Shown in pieces: positions 4,877 through 51,690 of a stretch of 64,000 bases of DNA. The position numbers and the translations under genes are program-made. Source of the DNA: Candidatus Poribacteria bacterium. Lineage in GTDB: Bacteria; Poribacteria; WGA-4E; WGA-3G. Position 1 is the first letter of the stretch. Each line of letters starts with the position of its first letter. The notes under the pieces were generated by a model. It ran no database searches, was not told the DNA's origin, and saw only the letters and a list, made by a program, of their open reading frames with translations. The stretch is taken from positions 12,707 to 76,706 of the forward strand of contig JAJDWA010000023.1 of the NCBI GenBank assembly GCA_022825825.1, written 5' to 3'.

Positions 4877-5034
4877 GATCAATTTCCATTACTTAAAAAT
4901 ATGCGTAAGTAAAACTTTGCCAATTCGCTAGCACTTAATCAAATATTTTTGACAAAGGTAAATTAATAAGCGCGAAACAAATGTAGAAGTTTACCAAGAA
5001 ACTTCACTAATTTTTTATGAAGTCTCGTTATAAA

Positions 5035-5409
5035 TTAACGAAGAAATATATTCCTTAAAAAGGACATCCCGAATCCTTTAAGCGGATCATCAGGCATAAT
5101 AATGTATTGACTAACAAGGACCACAACTAAAGGAATACATGCTATAGCAGTTGCAAGTATCCGTCGGTTTTCTAAGCCTTTACCAAGGAAAAACACAACG
5201 ATAGGAATTGCAACGAGAATCAATTCAGCAGGCCACTGCCACGTAGGTTGCGCTGAACTACCATCAACAAGCCAGATGAAAGCCCCCAAAATTCCAGAGG
5301 CAATCAAAACGACGACTGTACTACCACGTACCTGTTCCATGTCAGGTTTAGATACTTTTTGCCATTCTAAGAGAATATTCTGAATGTAATTTTTAATCCG
5401 TGCTATCAT
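5035..5409 (-). CDS. secE: preprotein translocase subunit SecE with an unusual C-terminal two-TM extension
   Basis: MIARIKNYIQNILLEWQKVSKPDMEQVRGSTVVVLIASGILGAFIWLVDG matches the SecE core (KVxWP-like segment plus a TM). Canonical position between tRNA-Trp and nusG. The ATG at 5409 avoids overlap with the tRNA. Confidence 0.75.
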   Translation of the reverse strand: MIARIKNYIQNILLEWQKVSKPDMEQVRGSTVVVLIASGILGAFIWLVDGSSAQPTWQWPAELILVAIPIVVFFLGKGLENRRILATAIACIPLVVVLVSQYIIMPDDPLKGFGMSFLRNIFLR

Positions 5410-5418
5410 GATAAAAGG

Positions 5419-5492
5419 CAGGCCAGGAGGGATTCGAACCCCCAACATCCGGTTTTGGAGACCGGCGCTCTACCAGTTCGAGCTACTGGCCT
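5419..5492 (-). tRNA. tRNA-Trp (anticodon CCA)
   Basis: Folded by hand: AGGCCAG acceptor, GCTC/GAGC D-stem, anticodon loop CTCCAAA, TTCGAAT T-loop. No encoded CCA. Confidence 0.9.
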
Positions 5493-5505
5493 GTGGACAT
5501 AAAGT

Positions 5506-5658
5506 CTACCGAGTCTCCTTATGCTGCGTATGTTTCCGGCAGAAACGACAATATTTTTTTCGCTCTAACCTGTCCTGCTGTTTTTGTCGATTCCGCGTTG
5601 TTGTATAATTCCGTTGTTTGCAGGCATCACATGCTAATGTTACAATGTCTCTGGGCAT
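5506..5658 (-). CDS. rpmG: 50S ribosomal protein L33
   Basis: 50-aa ORF below the ORF-track cutoff: [50 protein letters not shown]. It has the CxxC...CxxC L33 signature and an AAGGTGG RBS. TAG stop at 5506-5508. Confidence 0.9.
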
Positions 5659-5684
5659 AATTTTCCACCTTTGTGTATAACTGG

Positions 5685-5757
<73 letters not shown>

Positions 5758-5775
5758 AAATCAGAGTGTGTCACA

Positions 5776-5848
5776 AGCGGGAGACGGGATTCGAACCCGC
5801 GACGCATGGCTTGGAAGGCCAATGCTCTACCAGCTGAGCTACTCCCGC
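5776..5848 (-). tRNA. tRNA-Gly (anticodon TCC)
   Basis: GCGGGAG acceptor, anticodon loop CTTCCAA, TTCGAAT T-loop. Confidence 0.9.
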
Positions 5849-5858
5849 ATAAACCGAA

Positions 5859-5940
5859 TGGGGGCGGACGGATTCGAACCGCCGTAGGCATTGCCAACAG
5901 ATTTACAGTCTGCCCTTTTTGACCGCTCAAGCACACCCCC
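5859..5940 (-). tRNA. tRNA-Tyr (anticodon GTA), long variable arm
   Basis: GGGGGTG acceptor, anticodon loop CTGTAAA, variable arm GGCAATGCC, TTCGAAT T-loop. Confidence 0.9.
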
Positions 5941-5948
5941 TAATGGGA

Positions 5949-6020
5949 AGCTGACGAGAGGAATCGAACCTCCAACCTAGTGATTACAAATCACTTGCTC
6001 TACCATTGAGCCACGTCAGC
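5949..6020 (-). tRNA. tRNA-Thr (anticodon TGT)
   Basis: GCTGACG acceptor, anticodon stem AGTGA/TCACT, loop TTTGTAA, TTCGATT T-loop. Confidence 0.9.
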
Positions 6021-38013: not shown

Positions 38014-39750
38014 ATGGAAAATAAAGCACCCGATTGGGTGAAAGTAGCTGATTTAAGCGAAGTGCCTGAGGGACAACCGAAGGCAATTAAAATGGGAGAG
38101 GGGCGTAGTATTGCCCTCTTTAATGTTGACGGCAAAATTTATGCGACTGATAATCAGTGTCCGCATATGGGCTACCCGTTAACACGAGGCACAATCCGAA
38201 ATGGCATTCTGACATGTGATTGGCACCGCCGCAGTTTTGATTTAGAGGGTGGCGGCTGTTTTCACGTTGAATGTGATGACTTGAAGGTTTTTCCGGTGGA
38301 TATCCGAGGCAATGAAATTTGGATTGAACCGGGAGATATGATCTACCGCCGCGCAGAAGAACATAAGCAACTGCTCCGAGAAGGTCTTTTAAGCGAAGAC
38401 CGATGGACAATGTCCAAAGCAATTGCCCTGTTACTTAAAGGCGGTGTACCAGAAGAAGAGGTCATGGGAGCGATTCTGGAACACGTCGCCCGACACATTC
38501 CCAGTGCTCACGGGTCAGAAGGTGGAGAAGATGTCTCGAGACTCATCAATGGACTCAGAGTTGGAAGTCGGTATGAGGGAGAGGATAGACTCATCGCTGT
38601 CACTACCGCTGCATGTTCTGCTGCAGGAGAAGCACGTCAACGGCTTGAAGTTGTACCGCTGCCTGAACCTGTCAGTTGGGAAAAGATTGAGCGATGGGTA
38701 CGTATCTTCTCCTATGAAGGACAAGCTGGTCGTATTGAGCGCTGCTTGTTTACAGCATACCACAAAGGTGATGCAGATAAATTGCGTCCATTATTGTTTG
38801 AATGTGCTGTCGAACCCAATTTTATTGATAATCCACAGATCCCGCTTTATGTAAGTTATCTTTCTGAAGTGGTTGATGAATTCGGGTGGGACCGCACTGC
38901 GGATCTGTTTTTCTATCTCGGTGCAGACCTTGTCGGACATCATCCCTCGGATCCAGAACGGTATCGCAGGGACGCGATCAATCTGATGAGAGAGATGCTA
39001 CCAACAGTTGAAAGTGCCGCGTTAGAACGAACGAATAAGTTTGACGAGGATGCTTTTGTTGAAGCACTTACCAGCGTCAATCTCGAACGTTCCTTTGAGG
39101 AGGTACAGGCAGTCATAGTTGATGGTGTCCAGTTAGATAGGGTTATCACATCACTTGTTCTACTTGCAGCGGATCGTATGGCAAACACACCTGTGAATGT
39201 AGATGCGGGTTGGTGGAACTTAACAATGGAACTCAACCTTGCGGCATCTTTGCGAAGTGCGCAACAAGTTGGTGGAAGCCTTGTCGCAGCGAAAGGGCTT
39301 TTCCACGTTGCATGGCAAATGTTCGCTGACCGTTGGATAAATATCCCTACACGACTCCTTAGCGAACCGTTGGGTGAAGAAAAACTTGATGTAGCAAATG
39401 AAGCAGAAGGTATTGAATTGATTATCGGCACAATTGAGTCACTCAATGTTCAAGATGTCGGACCGCAGGTGCTTGGATATCTAAATGCTGGCTATTCTGC
39501 TGAGAATTTACTCCAAGCCATCGGCCATTCAGTGCTATGGGATGATACCGGAAGTGAAGTTCTGCCGACATTGCGCACCGTGTTTGAAGAATGGCAGCAC
39601 GCCGAAGGGCATCCCGCGCAACCACAACTGCTGGTCGGTTTGGCACGATATGTTACAGATATCCGATCCAATACGGATAACAAATCTGCAGCTACCACAG
39701 CGATGAATTTTGCTGAAGGCAGAACTACAATTGAGGTCTTTGAGGAGTAA
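38014..39750 (+). CDS. Rieske [2Fe-2S] domain protein fused to an uncharacterised C-terminal domain of about 470 aa (paralog 1)
   Basis: CPHMGYPL-x-CDWH Rieske ligands (CxH-x16-CxxH) within aa 49-71. I do not recognise any family in the remainder. Confidence 0.8.
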   Translation: MENKAPDWVKVADLSEVPEGQPKAIKMGEGRSIALFNVDGKIYATDNQCPHMGYPLTRGTIRNGILTCDWHRRSFDLEGGGCFHVECDDLKVFPVDIRGNEIWIEPGDMIYRRAEEHKQLLREGLLSEDRWTMSKAIALLLKGGVPEEEVMGAILEHVARHIPSAHGSEGGEDVSRLINGLRVGSRYEGEDRLIAVTTAACSAAGEARQRLEVVPLPEPVSWEKIERWVRIFSYEGQAGRIERCLFTAYHKGDADKLRPLLFECAVEPNFIDNPQIPLYVSYLSEVVDEFGWDRTADLFFYLGADLVGHHPSDPERYRRDAINLMREMLPTVESAALERTNKFDEDAFVEALTSVNLERSFEEVQAVIVDGVQLDRVITSLVLLAADRMANTPVNVDAGWWNLTMELNLAASLRSAQQVGGSLVAAKGLFHVAWQMFADRWINIPTRLLSEPLGEEKLDVANEAEGIELIIGTIESLNVQDVGPQVLGYLNAGYSAENLLQAIGHSVLWDDTGSEVLPTLRTVFEEWQHAEGHPAQPQLLVGLARYVTDIRSNTDNKSAATTAMNFAEGRTTIEVFEE

Positions 39751-39756
39751 TCTCTA

Positions 39757-41037
39757 ATGAGCCAAAATGCTTGGCACCTGCAGCGAACGGCATTTATTGA
39801 TGCAGTGAGAAACGGGGACGCGAATCGAGTCAAATCCTTGTTGGCTGATAACAGTGAACTTAATGCTTACATTGATGAACCTTGGTTCTCCTTTGATGCG
39901 CCGGCAATTGTGTTTGCCGCTGGCGAGGGTAATCGCCCGCTTGTGGAGGTGTTGCTTGATGCGGGGGCAAACATTGATGCCAAAAGTTCTTGGTGGGCAG
40001 GTGGCACTTCGGCACTGCAGCACGCGTCCGGTTCAATGCTCGGATACAACAGGGAATTAGCTGCGTATCTAATTGAACGCGGTGCAACGATTGACGCACA
40101 TTCAGCAGCGGGTTTGGATATGGTGGATACACTTGAGGCGTTGATTCGTGAAAACCCGGATGTTGTTAATGCACCTGGATGCGATAGCATGTCTCCGCTT
40201 CATTTCTCAGCGACACCCCGAATTGCAGAACTGCTCCTCAAGCACGGCGCGGACATAAATCTACGCGATCGGGACCATAACGGAACTGCAGCGCAATGGA
40301 CGATGCGGAGACGGCCTGAAGTCTGTAAATACCTCCTTGACCAAGGTGCCGAAGCGGACGTTGTCCTCTATTGCGCGATGGGTGACGTTGAACGAGCAAG
40401 GGCAGAATTTCTGAAAAACCGTGAACTCCTCACGCTCAGGATAAATATGAAAGCGCCTGAAGGTTTCGTTATCCCATCGTCAAAGGTTAACGATGAGCAA
40501 ACAGAGGTTGTTCCTGGTGGACATGTGTATGTTTATCAGGTCGGACCGACCATGCCGCTGCTTGAGATAGCACTTCAGTCTAAGCAGCCAGCAATCGTTG
40601 ATCTGCTCATTGACTTAGGTTATGAGATCAACTTGCGAGACTGGTATGTACTGGTTGGACAGGGACCGAAACGGTTTGATGCTTTGGTGAAAGGATTCCT
40701 TGCTAAAGGTCGGGATATTAACGCACTTCAAAAGCATCGGCGTGGCATGTGGTCGCCTCTACATTGGGTCGCACAACGCGGTTTGACAAACGGTATCGTC
40801 TGTTTATTGGCAAACGGGGCTGACCCGAATGTGACCGATGACAAAGGGCAAACACCGCTACACTTCATTGCACAGAAGGGTGTCGGCAAAAACCAAGCAG
40901 AGTCACTAATTGAACATGGCGCTGATCTCAATGCACGTGATGATGCTGGACACACACCGCTTGATTACGCTAAGAAAGCAAAACGTAAATCGCTTGCGGA
41001 TTTCTTGATAAATTTAGGAGCGAAAAGCGGCAAGTAA
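39757..41037 (+). CDS. ankyrin-repeat protein
   Basis: GAGGAG RBS inside the end of the previous gene. Repeats such as SPLHFSATPRIAELLLKHGADINLRD and TPLHFIAQKG...LIEHGADLNARD. Confidence 0.85.
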   Translation: MSQNAWHLQRTAFIDAVRNGDANRVKSLLADNSELNAYIDEPWFSFDAPAIVFAAGEGNRPLVEVLLDAGANIDAKSSWWAGGTSALQHASGSMLGYNRELAAYLIERGATIDAHSAAGLDMVDTLEALIRENPDVVNAPGCDSMSPLHFSATPRIAELLLKHGADINLRDRDHNGTAAQWTMRRRPEVCKYLLDQGAEADVVLYCAMGDVERARAEFLKNRELLTLRINMKAPEGFVIPSSKVNDEQTEVVPGGHVYVYQVGPTMPLLEIALQSKQPAIVDLLIDLGYEINLRDWYVLVGQGPKRFDALVKGFLAKGRDINALQKHRRGMWSPLHWVAQRGLTNGIVCLLANGADPNVTDDKGQTPLHFIAQKGVGKNQAESLIEHGADLNARDDAGHTPLDYAKKAKRKSLADFLINLGAKSGK

Positions 41038-41102
41038 CCGACAACTGCTAAATTGCCATTTCCAACACTTTTTGGCTAATTAAGTGTTAAGAGGATTCAA
41101 GC

Positions 41103-41663
41103 ATGCAATACGATGACAATTCACCATTCTATAAATTGCTTGCTACGAAATATAAGCAAGAAGAGGAAGCTCTTGGTATTACTATCGTTGAAACGTATCC
41201 AGAAGTAGCGAAATTGGCGTGGCCTGGTCCTGATGAAAAAGGACAACCATTTGTCAAAGGCAGTACAGCGCTGCATTACGCTGCCAATGATGGGAAAGAT
41301 CAACTTGTTCTTAAGCTTCTTGAATATGGTTCGGATGTTAATGCAAGTGATGCAAACTGGTACCGATCTGTGCTATCTTGGGCTGCTAATAATGCATGGA
41401 CTTCAACGATACGCTTACTTCTTGCAAATGGAGCGGATCCTACGTCTTTAGATGCAGTTCATGCCGCTGCGTTTGGTGGTTCTTCATGCGGTGAAGGGCA
41501 AGAACAAGAATACGCAGAAACACTGCAAATCCTGATTGATGCGGGTGCTGATATGAACGATCGACGCCATTATCAGAACCAAACGCCACTTGGGATTGCT
41601 TTAAAAAGCGGAAACAGAGGTGCGATTGCGTATTTGCGCAGCATCGGTGCCGCAGAAGTATAA
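41103..41663 (+). CDS. ankyrin-repeat protein
   Basis: TALHYAANDGKDQLVLKLLEYGSDVNASD and LLANGADPTSLD. Confidence 0.85.
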   Translation: MQYDDNSPFYKLLATKYKQEEEALGITIVETYPEVAKLAWPGPDEKGQPFVKGSTALHYAANDGKDQLVLKLLEYGSDVNASDANWYRSVLSWAANNAWTSTIRLLLANGADPTSLDAVHAAAFGGSSCGEGQEQEYAETLQILIDAGADMNDRRHYQNQTPLGIALKSGNRGAIAYLRSIGAAEV

Positions 41664-41697
41664 AATTTGCCGAATATGTAGGTTGGGTAGAACGGCG

Positions 41698-41870
41698 TGA
41701 AACTCCTAACTGTCAATTTAGCGTGAGAATAATCTCAAACCCGGTAGGTGCGGTTTCCTAACCGCACCTACCATTCTGAATGTCCGAGGCGCAATGAATT
41801 GCGATTAAACGCGTTTTTTCCTAAGTTGACAGTTACGGTTAGAACGGCGTGAAACCTAACAAATTGAATT
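41698..41870. mobile_element. MITE-like insertion: direct repeats, then 10-bp terminal inverted repeats, around a family A hairpin
   Basis: TAGAACGGCGTGAAAC occurs at 41698-41713 and 41850-41865. taactgtcaa (41717-41726) pairs with ttgacagtta (41836-41845). Core hairpin ggtaggtgcgg-TTTCCTAA-ccgcacctacc at 41753-41782. Confidence 0.4.
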
Positions 41871-41940
41871 TATGAGATACAAATTAGTCTTCGGTAAAGG
41901 CAATCGCCTCCTACCGTTGATGTAATAGGAGAAGTATAGA

Positions 41941-43689
41941 ATGTTATCAGAAAATGGAAATTTCGTAAAAGTCGCTGCCCGAAGTGATATAGCAGAGGGA
42001 AAACCGAGGGCAGTCAGAGTTGAAGGACATAGTATTGCCCTCTTTGAGCATGAAGGCAATGTTTACGCCACAGATAACCAGTGTCCACACATGGGCTATC
42101 CGCTCATAAGAGGGCATGTCAAAAGAGGTGTTTTGTCGTGCGACTGGCACGGTTGGAGTTACGACATGGAAGGTGGCGGATGTTTCACCGGTGGTTGTGA
42201 TGACCTCGCTACGTTTCCCGTTGACGTTCGCAATGGTGATATCTATGTAGATGTCGGCAGTGGTGGAAAGAAACGGGATGACGCACATTTTCTTTTGTTG
42301 AAAGAGGGGTTATTTTCGCATGACAGTTGGACGCTTTCCAAAGCTATTGCCATTATGTTAGCAAAAGGCGTTTCAGAAGATGAAACGTTGGAGATAATGG
42401 TTAAACACATGGTGCGGCATATTTCGACAGCCGAAGGTGCGCGAAGCGGCGGCGGGCGTATCGCAACACTGATGCACGGAATTAAGGTCGCACACATGTA
42501 TGAATCCGATGATCGACTTATTCCGCTGATGATGGCGGCGACACATGCTGCTGGTGGACACAATGATCGTCCTGACCGTCAACCGCTTCCACCGCCAGTT
42601 GACTGGGAAAAACTTGAAAACTGGATTAGAGTGTTCACCGCCGATAAAGAATGGGAAGGTATAGAAAAATGCCTTATCACAGCAAGGCAGTTAGGTGGGC
42701 ATGAAGACAAATTTATCCCGCTCTTCCTCGATTGCGCGTCCCAGTGGTTCTTTCTCAGCCACTCCAGAAACTTAATTGACCTTTGCCATTTGGCTGAAGT
42801 ACTTGAGAAATGGGGATGGGAGATGACTGGGGAATTAGTCTGTAACCTCGGCGCAAAGATACTTGGGCAAGGCCGTGGCAGACCCGGTGAACGTCTCCGT
42901 GAAGCACTCCAAAAACTGGAAGAAATTGATCATATCTTTGATAACCTTCCGCAGGAAAAATCACCTGACGCAGACGTTGATTTTGACGAAGATGAATTAT
43001 CTGCCGATCTGGTCAGTGGGGATATAGACACAATTTTTGATGCTATAACGAAAGTGCTCACAGCAGGTGCTTCCATTGACAAGATCGCTACAACCATGGT
43101 GATGACATCTGCTGATAGGATGGCAAGAACACCAGTTAACATGAGTCCCGGTTGGTGGGATTTACAAGAAGAGATGGAATTAGCGGCGAACATTAGAAAG
43201 GTCCTCCGTTTTGGTGGCACTAAAATAGCTTCGAAGGCACTCTACCACTGTGGATGGAGATTTTATTCTAACCGCTGGTTAAACATTCGTCCTCAACCGA
43301 TTTCAGAAGCGAGAACGACTTCAACCACTAAAGTCCTTGATGAAGATATGGCAATTGACGCAATCGTTGATGGAATCGAATCTGTCCGAATCCAAGAAAT
43401 TGGTCGACGCACTCGCGAATATCTTAACTCAGGGTGCTCCGCTGAACGATTATTGGCTGAGATGGGGCAATGTATCCTCAAGGATGATAACGGTGATTCT
43501 CTCCTCAGCACGATTCACATTGTGGATAGAGAGTGGCATTACTGTGAGAAGCATCCTGCAAGGAATCAACTGATTGTTGGGTTAGCCCGATGGGCAACGG
43601 ATGTTCGCAGAAACGCGGGGAACGATTCCGCCGTGCAGACTGCACACCGTTTCGCAAAAGGCGAAACCGCTACGGAACTCTACGAATAA
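41941..43689 (+). CDS. Rieske [2Fe-2S] domain protein fused to an uncharacterised C-terminal domain of about 470 aa (paralog 2)
   Basis: CPHMGYPL...CDWHGWSY. Collinear with 38014-39750 over the full length, with shared blocks ADRMA(N/R)TPVN, GWW(N/D)L and LVGLAR(Y/W)xTD(I/V)R. Confidence 0.8.
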   Translation: MLSENGNFVKVAARSDIAEGKPRAVRVEGHSIALFEHEGNVYATDNQCPHMGYPLIRGHVKRGVLSCDWHGWSYDMEGGGCFTGGCDDLATFPVDVRNGDIYVDVGSGGKKRDDAHFLLLKEGLFSHDSWTLSKAIAIMLAKGVSEDETLEIMVKHMVRHISTAEGARSGGGRIATLMHGIKVAHMYESDDRLIPLMMAATHAAGGHNDRPDRQPLPPPVDWEKLENWIRVFTADKEWEGIEKCLITARQLGGHEDKFIPLFLDCASQWFFLSHSRNLIDLCHLAEVLEKWGWEMTGELVCNLGAKILGQGRGRPGERLREALQKLEEIDHIFDNLPQEKSPDADVDFDEDELSADLVSGDIDTIFDAITKVLTAGASIDKIATTMVMTSADRMARTPVNMSPGWWDLQEEMELAANIRKVLRFGGTKIASKALYHCGWRFYSNRWLNIRPQPISEARTTSTTKVLDEDMAIDAIVDGIESVRIQEIGRRTREYLNSGCSAERLLAEMGQCILKDDNGDSLLSTIHIVDREWHYCEKHPARNQLIVGLARWATDVRRNAGNDSAVQTAHRFAKGETATELYE

Positions 43690-43707
43690 CACAAGTAATT
43701 CACTATT

Positions 43708-43743
43708 GTAGGGCGAGGTTTTGTGCCTCTGCCCTACTTTTTT
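43708..43743 (+). terminator. rho-independent terminator (family B unit co-opted)
   Basis: gtagggcgagg-ttttgtg-cctctgccctac followed by a run of 6 T. Confidence 0.7.
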
Positions 43744-43748
43744 ATTAA

Positions 43749-44774
43749 ATGAAAAAAATCGTTCTATCCCTTCTTTTTAGTCTATTATGTTTGTCAGCTC
43801 ATGGGGCATCCTTGGAGTTCGTCTTTCAACTCGGCGAAAAACAGAACCCACGACTTGATAGATTACTCCCTGATGTTCCACGATATTTGGCTTTTAACAA
43901 GGATAGCACAAAATTCATTGCTAAAGGAATGGGTGGCATCTTAGTAGAGTGGGATATTCACTCACGCCAAAAGCGAGAAGTCGGAAATATCCAAGCAAAG
44001 CGGTTGTTTGTTTATGCTGCTGGCACTAATCAACTTTTAATTCAGAAAGAGGATAATGTCACAATTCTCAATCTTGGAGGTAGCAATGAAACACAAGTAA
44101 CAAAGGGGCAGTATGAAAGTGGGAGTCTATCAGCAAATGGCGACTTGGTAGTGTTGTCAAAAGGCGAAAAAGAGTTTGAATTTTGGCAACTCGTTAAGAA
44201 GCGTCCGAGGCAGGTGAAGACTTTTCAGACAACTTTGCCGATTAGGAATGGTCTTACGCTTTCTAACGATGGTAAATATATTGCATCTGCCGAAGGCAGT
44301 TACCGTGATGGTGAAGGACATCGCACAATTGTTGAGATTTGGGATGCAAACGATGAAAAGCAACCTATGCGTGTTTTCAACACCGGTGAAATTCTTGGTG
44401 TATGGAACTTAGTATTTTCAGATGGCAGCGAGATGCTTGCTGTTGACACGCAACTCAACGCTAAATCTGGAGTTCGCGTATGGGATGTCCGAACAGGCGC
44501 ACAACTCCTTAATAAATCAGGGTTTGAGGCATACTGGACACGCGCCCTCGCTTTCGCACCCAGTGAAAAATTAAATTCGACAGAATACCTTGCCTCTGGA
44601 GACGAGAAAGGAAATCTCCGAATATGGAAAATTCCCGGTGGTGAATCAACAATTTGGGAAACCTATCCAACCGGTATTCAAGCATTAGCCTTCTCACCCA
44701 ATGGAGAGTATTTGGCAGTCGCATTATGGGATACCACAATTCAAATTTTAAGGTGGAAAAGAGATGAACAATAA
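43749..44774 (+). CDS. secreted WD40-like beta-propeller protein
   Basis: Signal peptide MKKIVLSLLFSLLCLSAHG. WD-like blades (VEIWDAN, VRVWDVRTG, NLRIWKI, LAFSPNGEYLAVALWD). Confidence 0.75.
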   Translation: MKKIVLSLLFSLLCLSAHGASLEFVFQLGEKQNPRLDRLLPDVPRYLAFNKDSTKFIAKGMGGILVEWDIHSRQKREVGNIQAKRLFVYAAGTNQLLIQKEDNVTILNLGGSNETQVTKGQYESGSLSANGDLVVLSKGEKEFEFWQLVKKRPRQVKTFQTTLPIRNGLTLSNDGKYIASAEGSYRDGEGHRTIVEIWDANDEKQPMRVFNTGEILGVWNLVFSDGSEMLAVDTQLNAKSGVRVWDVRTGAQLLNKSGFEAYWTRALAFAPSEKLNSTEYLASGDEKGNLRIWKIPGGESTIWETYPTGIQALAFSPNGEYLAVALWDTTIQILRWKRDEQ

Positions 44775-45270
44775 TAATGAATCTTACACAGATGAAAAGG
44801 GACGCACCCGATGGCACGTAAATGATGAAATAGCGTTGAGATTAATGGAACTGCATACTTTCCTGATCATTGCAGATTACCCAGAGGATCATGCTTCACG
44901 ATATCCTCGTTTGGCACATTCCATCTCTCGTTTTCCAGAATCCATCGCGGATCTTGTCGATCAAGGAAGGTTAATAGAAGAAATTGGCGGGGTTGGCGAA
45001 ATAGTTGAGACTATCATCACTGAATATCTACAAACTGGAACATGCTCAAAAATCCAAGACTACGCAGGTGACATTCCGCAGACAATTGCTGAACTTGTGC
45101 CTGTTCCTGGTCTTGGCGCAAAAACGATTAAACGCTTATATGAGGATATTGAAGTTGTTAGTCTCGCTTCCCTTCGAACAGCAATTGACGAAAGTAAACT
45201 CAAAGGATTCAAAGGCATCGGCAAGAAAACGTTAGATAAAATTGAGGAATATCTTGATTCAAATTTGTAG
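44764..45270 (+). CDS. palm-less PolX-like protein: 8-kDa (lyase-like) plus HhH fingers domains only
   Basis: Collinear with residues ~1-145 of bacterial PolX (NDEIA..LMEL...SRY..LA....L..IGGVG..I..II.EY...GT.S...........ELV.VPGLGAKTIKRLYE......SL..A.....LKGFKGIGKKT..KI). It stops before any palm/NT motif. Overlaps the WD40 gene by 11 nt. Confidence 0.65.
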   Translation: MNNNNESYTDEKGRTRWHVNDEIALRLMELHTFLIIADYPEDHASRYPRLAHSISRFPESIADLVDQGRLIEEIGGVGEIVETIITEYLQTGTCSKIQDYAGDIPQTIAELVPVPGLGAKTIKRLYEDIEVVSLASLRTAIDESKLKGFKGIGKKTLDKIEEYLDSNL

Positions 45271-45285
45271 TAGATATATCTCAAA

Positions 45286-45768
45286 ATGGGTGTAAATTAT
45301 GGCAATTCACGAACAACTGGTGAAATGGTTGATGGTAAAAAGCACGGATATTGGATTACCTACTATGCAAATGGACTAAAACGTAGTGAAGGAAACTATG
45401 TTCATGGGAAAAAAGATGGACGTTGGATTCAATACCACAAAAATGGCAACACATATACTGAAGCCTTCTTCCGTGATGATAAGCATGAAGGCACTTACAC
45501 ATCTTATCATGAAAATGGCACCCTCGGAATGGTCGGGACTTATCCTAAACATGAAGGCAAATCTTATGATGGGAAAAAGGAAGGGGCATGGCAATGGTAC
45601 GAAGACGATGGAGAAACGGTCTGGCGTATCATCACCTATAAGAAAGGTGGTGCCCGCGCAAAACCGGATGAATATCCGCTGGGAACGTGCCACGGTTGTG
45701 GCGAAGGCAGACGTTTAAAGTGGGGTGATAGCTGTCCAAAGTGTGATGCAGAGATTGATCAGTTATAA
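45286..45768 (+). CDS. MORN-variant (YwqK-type) repeat protein with a C-terminal Zn ribbon, paralog 1
   Basis: GKKHGYWITYYANGLKRSEGNYVHGKKDGRWIQYHKNGN... repeats. CHGCGEGRRLKWGDSCPKC. Confidence 0.8.
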   Translation: MGVNYGNSRTTGEMVDGKKHGYWITYYANGLKRSEGNYVHGKKDGRWIQYHKNGNTYTEAFFRDDKHEGTYTSYHENGTLGMVGTYPKHEGKSYDGKKEGAWQWYEDDGETVWRIITYKKGGARAKPDEYPLGTCHGCGEGRRLKWGDSCPKCDAEIDQL

Positions 45769-45788
45769 GATTCTAAAATGGAGAAAAA

Positions 45789-46913
45789 ATGAAAAATAAG
45801 AAAGCATTAGGTGAAAGTTTAATTGCAGCAGCAAAAGCTGGTGATATGGATCAAGTCCGTGAACTTGTGGAGAACGGTGCTGATCCGAACTACAGCTGGA
45901 TTCCACCTTTCATGTGGGCATATTTTGAAAGGAACGTGGATATTGCTAAATACTTAATAGAACAGGGCGGCAACGTCAATCACGATGTCTTTTCAGAAGG
46001 TGTCCTGTTAAGTTTCGCTGCAAGAGATGGTGAGTTAAGGTTCTGTGAGTACTTAATTGATGTCGATGCAGAAGTCAATCACGGCATGCCGAAAGGCGGT
46101 GAGACGCCTTTACACAACGCTGCAGAAGCAAATCAACTCAGTGCAATAGATATGTTAATTGAGCATGGTGCAGAAATCAATCAGCGCTCAAAAAAAGGCG
46201 AGTCCGAATTGGAGTTCGGACCGATGGATGGCGAAACCCCGCTGCATATTGCGGCTGCATTGGCGTCAGTTGGCGTTATTCGATTCCTAATTAGCCATGG
46301 TGCCGACAAAACAATCCGAAACTTTTCTGGGATGAGTGCCTACGACTTTGCTGTTAAACATGAACGACCTGAAGAAATCCTTAATATCCTCTATTTTGAA
46401 GAGGAGGCATCACAAGAAAACGAATCTGCTGCTGATGATAAAGAGCGTTCTGGTGAACTGACTAACGATGAAATCGCACAAAAACTGATGGAGCTTCATA
46501 CCATTCTGATTGTTGCTGATTACCCGGAAGACCACGCGTCGCGCTACCCTCGTTTAGCGTACACTATTTCTCGTATGGAGGAATCTGTAGCGGAACTGGC
46601 AACGCAAGGAAAGTTACAAGAGGCAATTCCGGGTGTTGGAGACATCGTCTCAACCATCATCACTGAATATGTAGAAACCGGAACGTGCTCAAAATTACAA
46701 GAGTACGCAAGTGACGTTCCTCAGACAATTGTTGAACTCATCCCTATCCCCGGGCTCGGTCCTAAAACAATTAAACTTCTGTATCAGGAGGCAGGCATTG
46801 ACAGTCTTCTATCGCTCCGAACGGCAATTGACGAAGGTAAGCTAAAAGGGATCAAAGGCATTGGAAAGAAAACTATAGAAAAATTTGAGGAATACCTTAA
46901 TGAAAATTTGTAA
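45789..46913 (+). CDS. ankyrin repeats fused to a palm-less PolX-like 8-kDa/HhH module
   Basis: N-terminal half is ANK (TPLHNAAEANQLSAIDMLIEHGAEINQR...). The C-terminal 150 aa are about 70% identical by eye to the 44764-45270 product. Confidence 0.8.
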   Translation: MKNKKALGESLIAAAKAGDMDQVRELVENGADPNYSWIPPFMWAYFERNVDIAKYLIEQGGNVNHDVFSEGVLLSFAARDGELRFCEYLIDVDAEVNHGMPKGGETPLHNAAEANQLSAIDMLIEHGAEINQRSKKGESELEFGPMDGETPLHIAAALASVGVIRFLISHGADKTIRNFSGMSAYDFAVKHERPEEILNILYFEEEASQENESAADDKERSGELTNDEIAQKLMELHTILIVADYPEDHASRYPRLAYTISRMEESVAELATQGKLQEAIPGVGDIVSTIITEYVETGTCSKLQEYASDVPQTIVELIPIPGLGPKTIKLLYQEAGIDSLLSLRTAIDEGKLKGIKGIGKKTIEKFEEYLNENL

Positions 46914-46967
46914 CGGGTATTCATAAAATGCAGACAAACATTTTCTATTCTGAACAAGAGGTGAATC

Positions 46968-47438
46968 ATGCCAAGTAAACTTGATACGGGTGAGATGGTT
47001 GATGGTCAAAAGCACGGGTATTGGATTACCTATTATGCAAGCGGGATAAAGCGGAGTGAAGGCAACTATATTCATGGCAAAAAGGATGGACCTTGGATCA
47101 ATTATCACAAAAATGGGAACATATCGGGTGAAGCCTCCTTTCGCGATGGAAAATATGAGGGTCTCTGTGTCACTTATTATGAAAACGGGAATCTTAGATC
47201 CAGTGGTGCCTATCCTAAGCATGAGGGTAAATCTTACGATGGCAAAAAGGAAGGACCATTTTATGGTTATGAAGAAGACGGTAAAACGGTATGGCTAATC
47301 GTAACCTATAAAAAGGGTGGTAGTCGTGCAAAACCGGATGAGTATCCCCTCGGAACGTGCGATGTTTGTGGTGAAGGTAGACGTTTAAGTTGGGGTGATA
47401 GTTGTCCAAAGTGTGGCACAGAAATTGATGAGTCATAA
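46968..47438 (+). CDS. MORN-variant repeat protein with a C-terminal Zn ribbon, paralog 2
   Basis: Collinear with paralog 1. CDVCGEGRRLSWGDSCPKC. Confidence 0.8.
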   Translation: MPSKLDTGEMVDGQKHGYWITYYASGIKRSEGNYIHGKKDGPWINYHKNGNISGEASFRDGKYEGLCVTYYENGNLRSSGAYPKHEGKSYDGKKEGPFYGYEEDGKTVWLIVTYKKGGSRAKPDEYPLGTCDVCGEGRRLSWGDSCPKCGTEIDES

Positions 47439-47453
47439 GCAAGAGGTGAAATT

Positions 47454-47918
47454 ATGGCAAGTTCACGAGATACAGGCGAAATGATTGATGGTAAAAAGCA
47501 TGGGTATTGGATTACCTATTACGCGAGCGGATTAAAACGTAGCGAAGGCAACTTTGTCCATGGCAAAAAGGATGGGAAATGGATTCTCTATCACAAGAAT
47601 GGAAATATATCCAGCGTGGCTTACTTTCGAGATAATAAGTACGAAGGCGAGTATATATGCTATCATGAAAATGGGAATCGCAAATGGGGCGGTCCCTACA
47701 AAATGCATGATGGCACTTCTTCCGACGGTAGAAAAGAAGGTGTCTGGCACTGTTGGGAAGAGGATGGCGAAACGGTATGGCGTATCATCACCTATAAGAA
47801 AGGCGGTGCCCGCGCAAAACCCGATGAACATCCGTTTGGTGAATGTCCCGGTTGCGGTGAAGGCAGACGTTCCAATTGGAAAAATAACTGTCCACGATGC
47901 GGAACTGAACTTGACTAA
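47454..47918 (+). CDS. MORN-variant repeat protein with a C-terminal Zn ribbon, paralog 3
   Basis: Collinear with paralogs 1 and 2. CPGCGEGRRSNWKNNCPRC. Confidence 0.8.
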   Translation: MASSRDTGEMIDGKKHGYWITYYASGLKRSEGNFVHGKKDGKWILYHKNGNISSVAYFRDNKYEGEYICYHENGNRKWGGPYKMHDGTSSDGRKEGVWHCWEEDGETVWRIITYKKGGARAKPDEHPFGECPGCGEGRRSNWKNNCPRCGTELD

Positions 47919-47964
47919 CACAAACAGTCTGTAAGTACGAATGTATTATCCTCTTAGATCGTAA

Positions 47965-47996
47965 GGTGAGGCCTTTGTGCCTCACCATTTTCATTT
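47965..47996 (+). terminator. probable rho-independent terminator (family B-like unit)
   Basis: ggtgaggc-ctttgt-gcctcacc followed by attttcattt. Confidence 0.55.
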
Positions 47997-48087
47997 AAAC
48001 GAGAAAACTTTATGTTAATGCGTAATGCGTTGCGGTATGTATACGCTTTTATGCCCTCCTTTGTGTTTATAAGAATCACATCTATAT

Positions 48088-48116
48088 TTGACAAATATAA
48101 TTCAAAAGCGTATAAT
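48088..48116 (+). promoter_or_regulatory. consensus sigma70 promoter upstream of the rhodanese gene
   Basis: TTGACA (48088-48093), exactly 17 nt, TATAAT (48111-48116). Confidence 0.6.
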
Positions 48117-48208
48117 ATAAACACAAGCAAGCATGAAGTCGAAAACGAAACTTATGCACGTTCAGCATAAAATTACTTAAAATTTCTGGACAGGGAGGCA
48201 AAATAGAT

Positions 48209-49057
48209 ATGGCTGATTACGCTAATCCTGACGTTTTGGTAAGTACGGAGTGGGTTGCCGAGCATGGTAGTGATGCTGGCATCCGCCTACTTGAAGTTGA
48301 TGTGGACACATCTGCCTATGGAGAAGGACATATTGCAGGGGCAGTCGGCTTGAATTGGCAAACGCAGCTGTGCGACCAAATCCGACGCGATATTCTCACG
48401 AAAGATCAATTTGAGGCACTCTGCAACGACAGTGGCATTGCTAACGACACCACCGTTATCTTTTATGGTGATAACAACAACTGGTTCGCCACGTACGCAT
48501 TGTGGCAATTCCGTTACTATGAGCATGATGAGAGTCTGCTGAAGGTTATGAATGGTGGTCGTCAAAAATGGATTGATGAAGGCAGAGAACTCGTTACAGA
48601 TGTTCCTTCTTATGCTGCCACTGGGTATCAGGCGAAATTCCCGGATGACAACGTCCGCTCAACAAAGGACAATATCCTACCCACGCTGGAGCAAGGTGTT
48701 ATCAATCTCGTTGACGTGCGTTCACCCGCAGAATTTTCGGGTGAAGTGATTGCACCGCCGGGCATGAGTGAAACCGCACAACGTGGTGGGCATATCCCGG
48801 GCGCAGCGAATATTCCGTGGGCCACTGCGGTGGCGGAAGACGGCACCTTTAAGTCTTATGACGAATTGGCATCCATATACGGTGGTGCAGGTGTTGACGC
48901 CAGTAAAGAGACCATCGCTTACTGCCGAATCGGCGAACGTTCATCGCATACATGGTTTGTGCTAAAATACCTACTCGGTTATGAGAAGGTTCGCAACTAT
49001 GATGGCAGTTGGACAGAGTGGGGCAATTTGGTCGGCGCGCCCATAGCACGCGATTAA
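48209..49057 (+). CDS. thiosulfate sulfurtransferase (two-domain rhodanese)
   Basis: Active-site loop CRIGERSS (CRxGxR[ST], thiosulfate-type). Tandem rhodanese domains, 282 aa. Confidence 0.9.
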   Translation: MADYANPDVLVSTEWVAEHGSDAGIRLLEVDVDTSAYGEGHIAGAVGLNWQTQLCDQIRRDILTKDQFEALCNDSGIANDTTVIFYGDNNNWFATYALWQFRYYEHDESLLKVMNGGRQKWIDEGRELVTDVPSYAATGYQAKFPDDNVRSTKDNILPTLEQGVINLVDVRSPAEFSGEVIAPPGMSETAQRGGHIPGAANIPWATAVAEDGTFKSYDELASIYGGAGVDASKETIAYCRIGERSSHTWFVLKYLLGYEKVRNYDGSWTEWGNLVGAPIARD

Positions 49058-49449: not shown

Positions 49450-50283
49450 ATGTACTACCTGACACGGCAGGCCGCCTTTGAGGCGTCTCATTACAATCGG
49501 ATTCCCGAATTGAGCGATGCCGAAAACTTTGAACTGTTCGGTGCCGCAGCGAATCCAAATAGCCACGGGCACAACTATGTGCTTGAGGTGATGGTCAAAG
49601 GGGATTTAGATGTCGATGACGGGATGGTCATTAACTTGACGACTTTAGATGCGTTGTTGAAAACAGAAGTGATTGCGAATTATGATCACAAGCACCTGAA
49701 CAAACAACACCCCATTTTTGCTAAGAATCCACTGCTACAACCTACATGTGAAAACATTACCATTGAAATATGGCAACGACTCGTTCCATCCCTTCCCGAT
49801 GGACTACTCCATCGGGTTCGACTCTATGAAAGTTCATCACGATTTGCTGATTACTATGGAGAAGATTTGATGGTTTATCTCACCAAAGTTTATGAGTTCA
49901 GTGCAGCACACCGTTTACATAGCCAGGTGCTTAGCGATGAGGAAAACCGAGAAATTTTCGGGAAATGTAACAATCCTGCTGGGCATGGGCATAATTACGT
50001 ACTTGAAGTCACCGTCCGAGGTGATGTAGATGCAAAAACTGGGCTGGTCGCGGGTTTAAATCTGCTTGACGAGGTAGTCGAAAAACAGGTTTATGCACGT
50101 TTCGATTACAAACACCTAAATCTTGATACACCAGAATTTGAGAAACTCAATCCGACATCCGAAAACTTCGTAAAAGTACTTTGGGATGTATTAGAACCGA
50201 ATCTGCGTCCGGTGGTCTTACACCGCCTGCGCTTGCGAGAAACACCCAAAAATCATTTTGATTACTATGGAGAATCCTCTTAA
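49450..50283 (+). CDS. tandem-domain 6-pyruvoyl-tetrahydropterin / 6-carboxy-tetrahydropterin synthase (PTPS/QueD family, duplicated)
   Basis: Two PTPS units. Unit 1: FEASHYN...FGAAANPNSHGHNYVLEVMV. Unit 2: FSAAHRLHS...FGKCNNPAGHGHNYVLEVTV. Only the second keeps the catalytic Cys. Confidence 0.85.
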   Translation: MYYLTRQAAFEASHYNRIPELSDAENFELFGAAANPNSHGHNYVLEVMVKGDLDVDDGMVINLTTLDALLKTEVIANYDHKHLNKQHPIFAKNPLLQPTCENITIEIWQRLVPSLPDGLLHRVRLYESSSRFADYYGEDLMVYLTKVYEFSAAHRLHSQVLSDEENREIFGKCNNPAGHGHNYVLEVTVRGDVDAKTGLVAGLNLLDEVVEKQVYARFDYKHLNLDTPEFEKLNPTSENFVKVLWDVLEPNLRPVVLHRLRLRETPKNHFDYYGESS

Positions 50284-50286
50284 TTT

Positions 50287-50895
50287 ATGAATACTGAACA
50301 GGACAGTGAAGCTGATCACAAGCATGAATTGCAAGATAAGACAGCAAGTTTAGAATCTCTTTATGGACAGATTATTGAGCATCTGGGAGAAGACCTAAGT
50401 CGTGAAGGTTTGGTAAAAACACCACTCCGCGCCGCTAAAGCATTAGAGTTTTTGACAAGCGGATACAACCAGGAACTCAATACAGTATTGAATGAAGCTA
50501 TCTTTGACGAAGATTTTGACGAAATGGTCATTGTCAAGGATATTGAATTTTATAGTCTTTGTGAGCACCACATCCTACCGTTTTGGGGGAAGTGTCATGT
50601 GGGTTATCTTCCACGGAAACAGGTTATCGGTATAAGTAAAATTCCGCGAATTGTGGATATGTTTGCCCGGCGTTTGCAGGTACAAGAGAGGTTGACCCGT
50701 GAGATTGCCGAGGCACTTGAAACAGTTTTGAACCCGACAGGCGTTGGCGTTGTTATGGAGGCACAACACATGTGTATGATGGCGCGCGGTGTGGAAAAGC
50801 AAACCTCAAAGATGACAACAAACGCTATGCTTGGCACATTTCGGGAAGATAGTTCAACGCGTTCTGAATTTCTTAGGTGCATTCAAGGTGTCTAA
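50287..50895 (+). CDS. folE: GTP cyclohydrolase I (FolE type I)
   Basis: [22 protein letters not shown] and RLQVQERLT signatures. Confidence 0.95.
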
Positions 50896-50934
50896 GAGGT
50901 CGACAGCACGCTGCGTGTACCTACTACTTTTAAT

Positions 50935-51690
50935 ATGAACATGTTAAAACAAAACAGTATCAACGATGGACAAATAAATAATCTTGAAGGAAAAATTGCG
51001 ATTGTCACTGGCGCATCAAAAGGCATCGGCAAAGCAATAGCAGTTGCCTTAGCAGATGCAGGTGCAAAGGTAGTCCTCGCTGCACGCACACGTCAGACTG
51101 TAGAACAGGCCGCAGCAGAACTTAGAGAGACAGGCGCGGATGCAATCGCTGTTCCCACTGATATCACAGATGTTAATGCTGTGAAAAACCTTGTCCAACG
51201 CACATTGGATACCTATCAGAATTTGGATATTTTGATAAACAATGCAGGAAGCGGTAAATTTGGAACCGTTGCCGATTTTGCCCCATCAGATTGGGACAGT
51301 GTCATTAATTCCAATTTGAAAGGGGTTTATCTTTGTGCAAAATACGCACTTCCACATTTATTACAAGGTGGTGGACAGATTATTAACGTGCTTTCTATCG
51401 CTGCAAAGGTGGCTTTCCCCGCTTCAAGCGCATATTGCGCCGCAAAAGCAGGTGCGCTTGCTTTAACAAAGGTCCTGGCTGCTGAAGTGCGTGATCAAAA
51501 TATACGGGTAACAGCAGTCCTACCCGGTTCTGTTGAAACACCATTTTGGGACGATATTCCACAACATCCCGATTTTGAAAAGATGCTCAAACCGGAGCAT
51601 GTGGCAAACGTCGTTCTATCTGTGTGTCAGCAACCGATTGGCATGGTTACCGAAGAAATTGTTGTGATGCCACCACTTGGAATTTTGTAG
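50935..51690 (+). CDS. SDR-family oxidoreductase (possible sepiapterin/pteridine reductase role by context)
   Basis: GKIAIVTGASKGIGKAIA, NNAG, YCAAKAG. Confidence 0.85.
   Translation: MNMLKQNSINDGQINNLEGKIAIVTGASKGIGKAIAVALADAGAKVVLAARTRQTVEQAAAELRETGADAIAVPTDITDVNAVKNLVQRTLDTYQNLDILINNAGSGKFGTVADFAPSDWDSVINSNLKGVYLCAKYALPHLLQGGGQIINVLSIAAKVAFPASSAYCAAKAGALALTKVLAAEVRDQNIRVTAVLPGSVETPFWDDIPQHPDFEKMLKPEHVANVVLSVCQQPIGMVTEEIVVMPPLGIL

Follow-up and report, generated by a model that had tools for sequence, protein, structure and literature searches.

The 64,000-nucleotide (nt) stretch of a Candidatus Poribacteria genome analysed here (the window; GenBank assembly GCA_022825825.1, contig JAJDWA010000023.1, positions 12,707 to 76,706 of the forward strand) carries a cluster of six genes. 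They code for a WD40 protein, two helix-hairpin-helix (HhH) proteins, the second of which bears an ankyrin (ANK) domain, and three proteins that combine MORN repeats with a zinc ribbon (MORN-ZnR). The cluster is a locally enlarged form of a module that is conserved among the sampled sponge-associated Candidatus Poribacteria. Its six-gene arrangement lies far beyond chance, the gene order recurring in dozens of other genomes. The HhH protein is shown to be a standalone descendant of the N-terminal 8-kDa and fingers part of bacterial PolX. The favoured explanation, to which a probability of roughly 0.4 is given, is that of a conserved functional module built on a non-catalytic HhH adaptor that would bind DNA and have its role inside the bacterium. 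The genes and the two hairpins around them are the following (positions are those of the window; aa, amino acids).

43708-43737, + strand: upstream hairpin, terminator- or attenuator-like, dG -20.9 kcal/mol, z -4.9, followed by T6.
43749-44774, + strand: WD40, 341 aa, its 3' end overlapping the HhH1 start by 11 nt; Pfam WD40 and beta-propeller families.
44764-45270, + strand: HhH1, 168 aa, a standalone PolX N-terminal module; Pfam HHH_8 and HHH_5.
45286-45768, + strand: MORN1, 160 aa, a MORN_2 beta-hairpin array with a C-terminal Zn-ribbon; Pfam MORN_2.
45789-46913, + strand: ANK-HhH2, 374 aa, with ankyrin at about residues 1-205 (nt 45789-46403) and the HhH2 module at nt 46404-46913; Pfam Ank, HHH_8 and HHH_5.
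46968-47438, + strand: MORN2, 156 aa, MORN-ZnR; Pfam MORN_2.
47454-47918, + strand: MORN3, 154 aa, MORN-ZnR; Pfam MORN_2, marginal.
47965-47986, + strand: downstream terminator-like hairpin with an 8-bp stem of which six pairs are GC, then a T-rich tract; end of the cluster.

Conservation of this arrangement was assessed by scanning one genome per species (183 relatives) and annotating the best 80 loci against the window proteins; the counts are on 79 loci. The titles of the 80 loci read Candidatus Poribacteria except for five labelled 'uncultured', and the named HhH1 homologues are all from Candidatus Poribacteria. A 263-kb ENA metagenome scaffold codes for HhH1 in identical form. The WD40 gene lies immediately 5' of HhH in 72 of the 79 loci, and the distance from its stop codon to the HhH start is between -17 and +11 nt in 68 of these 72. 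In 62/79 loci the first recognised gene 3' of HhH codes for a MORN-ZnR protein, an observation that bears out, within Poribacteria only, the conserved adjacency of the two families that a preliminary description of the cluster had put forward as a check. The genes that usually precede the cluster are Rieske (578 aa)-ANK (~426 aa)-[ANK (186 aa)]-Rieske (582 aa). The outer flanks vary: rhodanese, PTPS and GCH1 genes are found 3' in close relatives only, LamG and DUF5916 genes in others. Such varied flanks around a persistent core argue that the core is more than frozen synteny. Median identity within the close clade is 90% for HhH1, 89% for PTPS and 80% for GCH1, while WD40 (83%) and the MORN proteins (76%) evolve faster. 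Two loci have IS605/TnpB (OrfB_IS605, Cas12f1-like_TNB) and resolvase genes inserted within the HhH/MORN cluster (L003:7475-8910 and L006:8492-9604).

The assignment of the HhH proteins to the PolX N-terminus, proposed at first from the letters alone, is borne out by profile and fold comparisons. Against the PDB, the HhH family profile matches residues 29-148 of T. thermophilus PolX (3au2) with E 9e-22, and also D. radiodurans PolX and Pol beta. The NCBIfam PolX match spans model positions 27-144 of 571 only and scores 72 bits against a cut-off of 426. The AlphaFold2 (AF2) model of HhH1 has a pLDDT of 90 and its top Foldseek match is again the N-terminus of 3au2 (TMq 0.69). No palm, thumb or PHP domain is detected in HhH by Pfam, the 168-aa protein stopping after the fingers domain. 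Since profile, NCBIfam and fold matches are all limited to the PolX N-terminus, HhH corresponds to the 8-kDa and fingers module alone.

To compare the residues of the lyase site, 36 full-length PolX sequences were aligned with 120 proteins from Poribacteria and 120 from the wider family. Positions are named after a Pol beta sequence and numbering that we take to be the reference ones; an HMMER alignment to T. thermophilus PolX has the same register ('AEKI' versus 'atii'). The position of K72, the lyase nucleophile, is Ile in 221 of the 240 standalone proteins and never Lys, compared to Lys in 20/36 full-length PolX. At the K35 position 239/240 standalone proteins have His, while 33/36 full-length PolX have Lys or Arg. 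The K68 position is occupied by Ile, Val or Thr in the standalone family; full-length PolX has mostly Ser, Ala or Gly there, and Lys in one of 36. The K60 position is Glu in Poribacteria and variable in full-length PolX (Glu 7, Arg 6, Lys 6 of 36). Y39, K84 and the HhH glycines are kept in the standalone family; Y39 and the glycines are also kept in full-length PolX, where the K84 position is variable. The nucleophile of the deoxyribose-phosphate (dRP) lyase and the lysines of the 5'-phosphate pocket (K35, K60, K68 and K72 positions) are thus all replaced in HhH, and the dRP-lyase activity considered for these proteins in the preliminary description has to be given up. Judged by these residues, the comparison shows HhH not to be an enzyme of PolX or lyase type.

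All three HhH motifs, which bind the DNA backbone in PolX, are retained. Residues G76/G78, G116/G118/K120 and G151/G153/K155 of the HhH motifs are invariant in 20 sequences and mostly kept in the wider family. The third motif of HhH1, G151-I-G153-K-K155, matches the bacterial GFGxK motif, on which DNA binding by B. subtilis PolX depends (Banos et al. 2012, PMC3479172). The catalytically dead HhH protein probably still binds DNA. HhH1 has an isoelectric point (pI) of 4.9 and its charge is unevenly distributed, the net charge being about -9 in the N-terminal half and about -1 in the C-terminal half.

The N-terminus of bacterial PolX (3au2; 2w9m from D. radiodurans; more distantly human Pol beta) shares its fold and sub-domain order with HhH, as well as three HhH motifs and the tyrosine of the Y39 position. 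HhH differs from it by ending after the fingers, by the replaced lysines of the lyase pocket, by its acidic N-terminal half, and by two features absent from PolX: a beta-hairpin at the N-terminus (SYxDxKGRxRW) and the family-specific motif ADYPEDHAxRYP. The KGRxRW part of the hairpin is degenerate in the HhH2 type. Another standalone protein of this kind is the 'DNA polymerase IV (family X), NT domain' of Halogranum tailed virus 1 (BFVD R4TGZ1, 135 aa; TMt 0.70, E 2.6e-4). It is only 26% identical, comes from an archaeal virus and has no known WD40 or MORN context.

HhH2 carries the N-terminal ankyrin domain described for it earlier, the Pfam Ank repeats and the HhH module lying in a single frame in the window. 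ANK-HhH2 is also a single reading frame in loci L008, L023, L030 and L031, while in L009, L012, L015, L029 and L037 a stop codon and a second ATG make ANK and HhH2 two adjacent genes; in L032 the ANK part is mostly deleted. This natural fusion/fission polymorphism points to a functional link between ANK and HhH2.

The three MORN proteins score 34.5, 43.1 and 29.5 bits (the latter MORN3) against the Pfam MORN_2 cut-off of 29.6. The AF2 model of MORN1 (pLDDT 91.5) is an all-beta hairpin array of about five repeats, and its best Foldseek neighbours are MORN1 proteins and the N-domain of SET7/9. The zinc ribbon is a CxxC-x11-CxxC motif whose cysteines (C135, C138, C150 and C153 of MORN1) do not vary among 36 homologues and form a predicted Zn site; this region has a pLDDT of 83-93. 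The MORN domain has a net charge of about +3. An elongated sheet of repeated beta-hairpins is common to MORN-repeat proteins at large (apicomplexan and trypanosome MORN1, the SET7/9 N-domain, bacterial MORN_2/YwqK); compared to these, the cluster proteins add the invariant Zn-ribbon, and no YwqJ-type toxin is encoded nearby.

The window WD40 protein has a signal-peptide-like N-terminus (MKKIVLSLLFSLLCLSAHG followed by AS). A basic n-region, a hydrophobic h-region and a c-region of small residues are present in 65/65 WD40 orthologues, which are thus predicted to be exported. With the same criterion (maximum 11-residue Kyte-Doolittle mean of the h-region >=2.25), a signal-like N-terminus is found in 0/81 HhH and 0/117 MORN proteins and not in ANK-HhH2, the search covering N-terminal signals only, while C-terminal signals of the type IV secretion system (T4SS) kind and nuclear localisation signals were not looked for.

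The duplication of a unit of HhH and MORN-ZnR genes (HhH1/MORN1 and ANK-HhH2/MORN2) proposed in the preliminary description is confirmed, as is the divergence of its copies, then put by eye at roughly 60-70%. HhH1 and HhH2 are 67% identical over 167 aa; among the MORN proteins identity is 75% (MORN1/2), 69% (MORN1/3) and 67% (MORN2/3), with 71-78% at the DNA level. Synonymous divergence (dS) between paralogues is saturated (1.3 to >2) and the ratio of nonsynonymous to synonymous divergence (dN/dS) is 0.11-0.13. Between orthologues dN/dS is about 0.04-0.14 for all five small genes, mostly 0.05-0.08, the latter being the range of HhH1. All copies in the cluster are under strong purifying selection, and the duplication is old.

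The order of events differs in part from a simple triplication of MORN. There are three MORN genes and two HhH genes, as stated earlier; the separation of MORN2 and MORN3 is however old, as is the WD40-HhH-MORN core, both being found across the sampled Poribacteria. What was added, mainly in the clade of the window, is HhH2 and MORN1. The majority, deeper clade has the order WD40-HhH-MORN(type 2)-[LamG]-MORN(type 3). The type 2 MORN that follows HhH in most Poribacteria is 79-85% identical to the window MORN2, and MORN3 is a second ancient MORN-ZnR paralogue that stands 3' of HhH2 or LamG in relatives. The presence of both types in the deeper clade indicates that the MORN2/MORN3 split is ancient. 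MORN2 and MORN3 have an identical Shine-Dalgarno context, CAAGAGGTGAA, ahead of their ATG (46914-46967 and 47439-47453), so that the duplication took in the translation-initiation region. No obvious Shine-Dalgarno sequence precedes the WD40 and MORN1 starts. MORN1 is intact in the window and cut to open reading frames (ORFs) of 60-94 aa in L008, L010, L011, L013 and L016; loss of this paralogue is thus under way in parts of the clade.

A parallel triplet of a WD40-type lipoprotein, (ANK-)HhH2 and MORN3 is found in L012, L017, L018 and L031. Its WD40 protein, absent from the window, has 386-427 aa and a lipobox (…GC), is 26-29% identical to the window WD40, and is encoded directly 5' of (ANK-)HhH2 (L012:7884-9164, L017:8015-9289, L031:8117-9277). 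HhH2-type genes are 90% (L081:9244-9705) or 84% (L067) identical to the window HhH2 in loci whose HhH1 orthologues are only 67-69% identical, a pattern that suggests horizontal transfer of the HhH2 unit, or its recombination, between Poribacteria lineages.

Relatives of the HhH protein extend well beyond Poribacteria. A profile search of 1.8 billion representative proteins yields about 25 clusters of standalone relatives of ~150-190 aa above full-length PolX (from ~105 bits). A follow-up search brings the number of standalone HhH proteins to at least 487, the named ones originating from metagenome-assembled genomes (MAGs) of Deltaproteobacteria, Candidatus Binatia and Latescibacteria. The wider family has the N-terminal hairpin, a GGYPExHAxRY motif and the lysine loss in common. 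Of five HhH contexts outside Poribacteria, four lack WD40 and MORN genes and have DUF3750, AAA_15 with DUF4276, DUF3052 or GYD neighbours. In the fifth, on the 6.6-Mb contig of L096, a WD40 orthologue (46% identity over the full length, E 3e-96, signal peptide conserved) lies 41 nt 5' of HhH and the other genes are unrelated. The HhH-MORN pair is found in Poribacteria only and the WD40-HhH pair also in L096, which makes the latter pairing the older one; it is also the tighter of the two by its spacing in Poribacteria. Its frequency beyond Poribacteria is read from this one context in five, a WD40-anchored metagenome scan having given seven Poribacteria-like loci only. DUF3750 genes stand beside standalone HhH in L092 (5510-6298, with a 4-nt overlap) and near it in L097 (1770-2477), two contigs of the same sample (ERZ28669063); DUF3750 may be a recurrent HhH partner in that lineage.

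MORN-ZnR homologues with the Zn-ribbon (52-57% identity) are encoded by sponge-associated Gemmatimonadetes, without HhH. In L088-L091 the gene (5001-5453) lies directly 5' of an ABC sugar-transporter operon (substrate-binding protein, two permeases, ATPase) and near PhyH genes. More distant MORN relatives in Chthonomonadaceae and Chloroflexi lack the Zn-ribbon, a form seen only in sponge symbionts (Poribacteria and Gemmatimonadetes), and the MORN-ZnR family may have moved between such symbionts. The occurrence of MORN-ZnR without HhH and of HhH without MORN indicates that neither protein strictly needs the other. Three apparent N-terminal variants of distant homologues were discarded: the ANK-like N-terminus of P0235 has no Pfam support, and the extensions of P0222 and P0226 appear to be disordered or spurious high-GC ORF extensions. 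A mobile or phage origin was also rejected, plasmid and phage collections giving no close relatives but only PolX N-termini and generic MORN_2 proteins, and BFVD only the distant Halogranum virus protein.

The six genes are all on the + strand with spacers of, in order, -11, 15, 20, 54 and 15 nt; the tight packing noted before, with its 11-nt overlap and 15-54 nt gaps, is exact in every coordinate, and both hairpins previously placed around the cluster fold well. For the upstream one, equally good folding is reached in 0/200 shuffles. It lies 3' of a Rieske gene and ends 11 nt before the WD40 ATG. Co-orientation, spacers of -11 to 54 nt and a terminator-like hairpin at the 3' end would fit a putative operon; the upstream hairpin abuts the first ATG. 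No sigma-70-like site was found on the + strand upstream of the WD40 start in a scan of 43000-48500. The lack of a promoter-like site and the position of the hairpin make read-through from the upstream Rieske gene likely; the hairpin would terminate or attenuate expression of that preceding gene and not mark an independent start of the cluster. The next unit has a perfect TTGACA-17-TATAAT promoter motif at 48088-48116, 5' of a rhodanese gene. A repeat family common to the two flanking hairpins (GAGGNNTTTGTGCCTC) was considered and dismissed, the downstream copy alone matching at <=1 mismatch.

The genes upstream of the cluster, which may be co-transcribed with it, are the following.

38014-43689, + strand: Rieske-X (578 aa), ANK (426 aa), ANK (186 aa) and Rieske-X (582 aa), assigned by Pfam.

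The two Rieske paralogues (38014-39750 and 41941-43689) flank the ANK genes, are 42% identical and have an N-terminal Rieske [2Fe-2S] domain. Their conserved C-terminal region of about 470 aa has no sequence match in Pfam or the PDB, and the Rieske-X family appears to be uncharacterised. The segment 38001-50000, which spans these genes, has a GC content of 0.46-0.48 compared to about 0.40-0.43 in most of the window, with positive GC skew; that of the HhH and MORN genes themselves is 0.42-0.44. Further downstream (49450-51690) a double-domain PTPS (277 aa), GTP cyclohydrolase I and a short-chain dehydrogenase are encoded in a row that resembles a pterin or queuosine-precursor cluster. Five tRNA genes (Trp-CCA, Thr-GGT, Gly-TCC, Tyr-GTA and Thr-TGT) are found on the - strand at 5417-6020.

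In the favoured explanation HhH would act as a non-catalytic binder of the DNA backbone and as an adaptor. Its near-neutral C-terminal (HhH)2 half would hold duplex or gapped DNA, while the strongly acidic N-terminal half, with the invariant ADYPEDHAxRYP surface motif, would dock protein partners. The likeliest partners would be the MORN-ZnR proteins encoded next to HhH and the ANK domain, whether it is part of HhH2 or produced from a separate neighbouring gene. The tandem duplication in the window lineage (HhH1/MORN1, ANK-HhH2/MORN2, plus MORN3) would have provided paralogous adaptors with divided roles, as the purifying selection on all copies suggests. Of the alternatives raised in the preliminary description, that of an 'uncharacterised nucleic-acid-directed complex' is the best reading.

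Several observations weigh against such a DNA-binding module. The whole HhH protein is acidic, which is unusual in a DNA binder. No gene is coupled more closely to HhH than that of WD40, yet the WD40 protein is predicted to be exported and is hard to fit as a cytoplasmic partner; it would act in another compartment or be tied to HhH through expression only. This is the main puzzle under the adaptor model. The Poribacteria loci are mutually related, so that the adjacency of their genes is in part inherited synteny. In other phyla the neighbours of standalone HhH relatives differ from case to case and do not include MORN, and the Gemmatimonadetes MORN-ZnR (57% identity) adjoins an ABC transporter. 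The last two facts, the export of WD40 but not of HhH, and HhH-to-MORN gaps that often exceed 100 nt are what would be expected if the genes were co-located without joint function: HhH would be an independent accessory DNA-repair or end/gap-binding factor whose partner enzymes are encoded elsewhere, and the unrelated MORN-ZnR and WD40 would be held beside it by synteny and shared transcription. This view is possible but on balance unlikely, for the WD40 and HhH genes overlap or abut in 68 loci and their pair is kept in L096 despite wholly different flanks. Nor does it account for the second, parallel triplet, for the MORN paralogue that comes after each HhH paralogue, or for a core that persists while its flanks vary. 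An envelope or extracytoplasmic pathway would turn the puzzle of WD40 into its starting point: the exported WD40, with the WD40-type lipoprotein, LamG and DUF5916/CBM9 proteins of relatives, would be the effectors, and HhH and MORN-ZnR cytoplasmic regulators or assembly factors. The signal peptide of all WD40 orthologues, the lipobox of the second WD40, the apparent translational coupling of WD40 and HhH, and the Laminin_G_3 (with a signal-like N-terminus) and DUF5916 genes interspersed among the HhH and MORN genes of many loci agree with it. The window however has neither LamG nor DUF5916, nor a membrane component or known regulator domain, and the HhH architecture is that of a DNA-backbone binder rather than of a sequence-specific transcription factor, which leaves this pathway decidedly improbable.

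The preliminary description had also likened the cluster to a nucleomodulin-like effector set. ANK-HhH, HhH, MORN and WD40 would then be delivered to sponge cells, where HhH would attach to the DNA or chromatin of the host. The bacterium lives in symbiosis with sponges, and Poribacteria encode many eukaryote-like ANK and WD40 proteins (PMC3909097); WD40 has a signal peptide, an ANK domain is fused to a DNA-binding fold, MORN-ZnR is present in other sponge symbionts, and copy number varies in a locus that also receives IS605 insertions. HhH, ANK-HhH and MORN nevertheless have no N-terminal export signal, and no secretion-system genes are present among the genes called around the cluster. The dN/dS is 0.05-0.08 and conservation is comparable to that of housekeeping genes (PTPS, GCH1), the HhH family occurs also in MAGs named Binatia, Latescibacteria and Deltaproteobacteria, and NCBIfam T4SS-Ank scores of 18-41 bits against cut-offs of 450-1400 amount to generic ANK similarity. 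The effector reading is weakened by these results and is improbable; the evidence favours a DNA-associated role within the bacterium over a secreted, host-directed one. The remaining explanation, a toxin-immunity or anti-phage island with the MORN_2 (YwqK-like) proteins as a tandem immunity array, is very improbable. 'YwqK family antitoxin' is the name commonly given to MORN_2 proteins, the array is in tandem with variable copy number and truncated copies, and one distant HhH relative stands 3' of an AAA_15/DUF4276 pair. Yet no toxin gene (deaminase, YwqJ-like, LXG or nuclease) lies in or near the cluster in the window and the 79 loci, PADLOC matches only generic ANK models for ANK-HhH2 (PDC-M72A, Ankyrin), and purifying selection is strong with stable orthology across the sampled Poribacteria.

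The proteins described here add to known families in two ways. The first is a new family of standalone PolX N-terminal proteins, spread over several phyla and predicted from sequence to be lyase-dead; a survey of 2,935 prokaryotic PolX sequences (PMC9226535) does not describe standalone N-terminal proteins. The WD40-HhH-MORN-ZnR module, with its lineage-specific duplication and ANK fusion, is likewise new and specific to Poribacteria, and the literature search found no description of a WD40-HhH-MORN cluster. The work on eukaryote-like repeat proteins of Poribacteria (Kamke et al. 2014, PMC3909097) deals with the same group of organisms and the same repeat classes, WD40 proteins often having export signals. 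The terms 'helix-hairpin', 'MORN' and 'polymerase' have no occurrence in that article and the cluster is not described there. In contrast to the variable repertoire that it reports, the cluster genes evolve slowly and form a fixed syntenic module.

A bolder version of the adaptor model, which is improbable, is that a dead PolX N-terminal module was re-used as the core of a three-part machine made of an exported propeller, the HhH adaptor and a MORN-Zn-ribbon protein, with ANK as an interchangeable fourth part. Poribacteria cells are unusually compartmentalised. If true in a DNA-acting form, such a machine would work in a manner peculiar to this symbiont lineage and could serve nucleoid organisation in these cells or the handling of foreign or extracellular DNA; in a form delivered to the sponge, it would be a chromatin-binding nucleomodulin set in sponge cells.

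The components of the module are small and soluble and the AF2 models of HhH1 and MORN1 are confident, which makes the adaptor hypothesis directly testable in vitro. HhH would be a further case of a repair-enzyme domain re-used as a putative non-catalytic adaptor. Few uncultured sponge symbionts are as abundant as Poribacteria, whose 'eukaryote-like' repeat proteins are generally taken as host-interaction factors. Some of their ANK, WD40 and MORN genes belong to a fixed and slowly evolving module present throughout the sampled Poribacteria, and the fact that this module is built on a polymerase-derived fragment predicted to bind DNA points to a function inside the bacterium.

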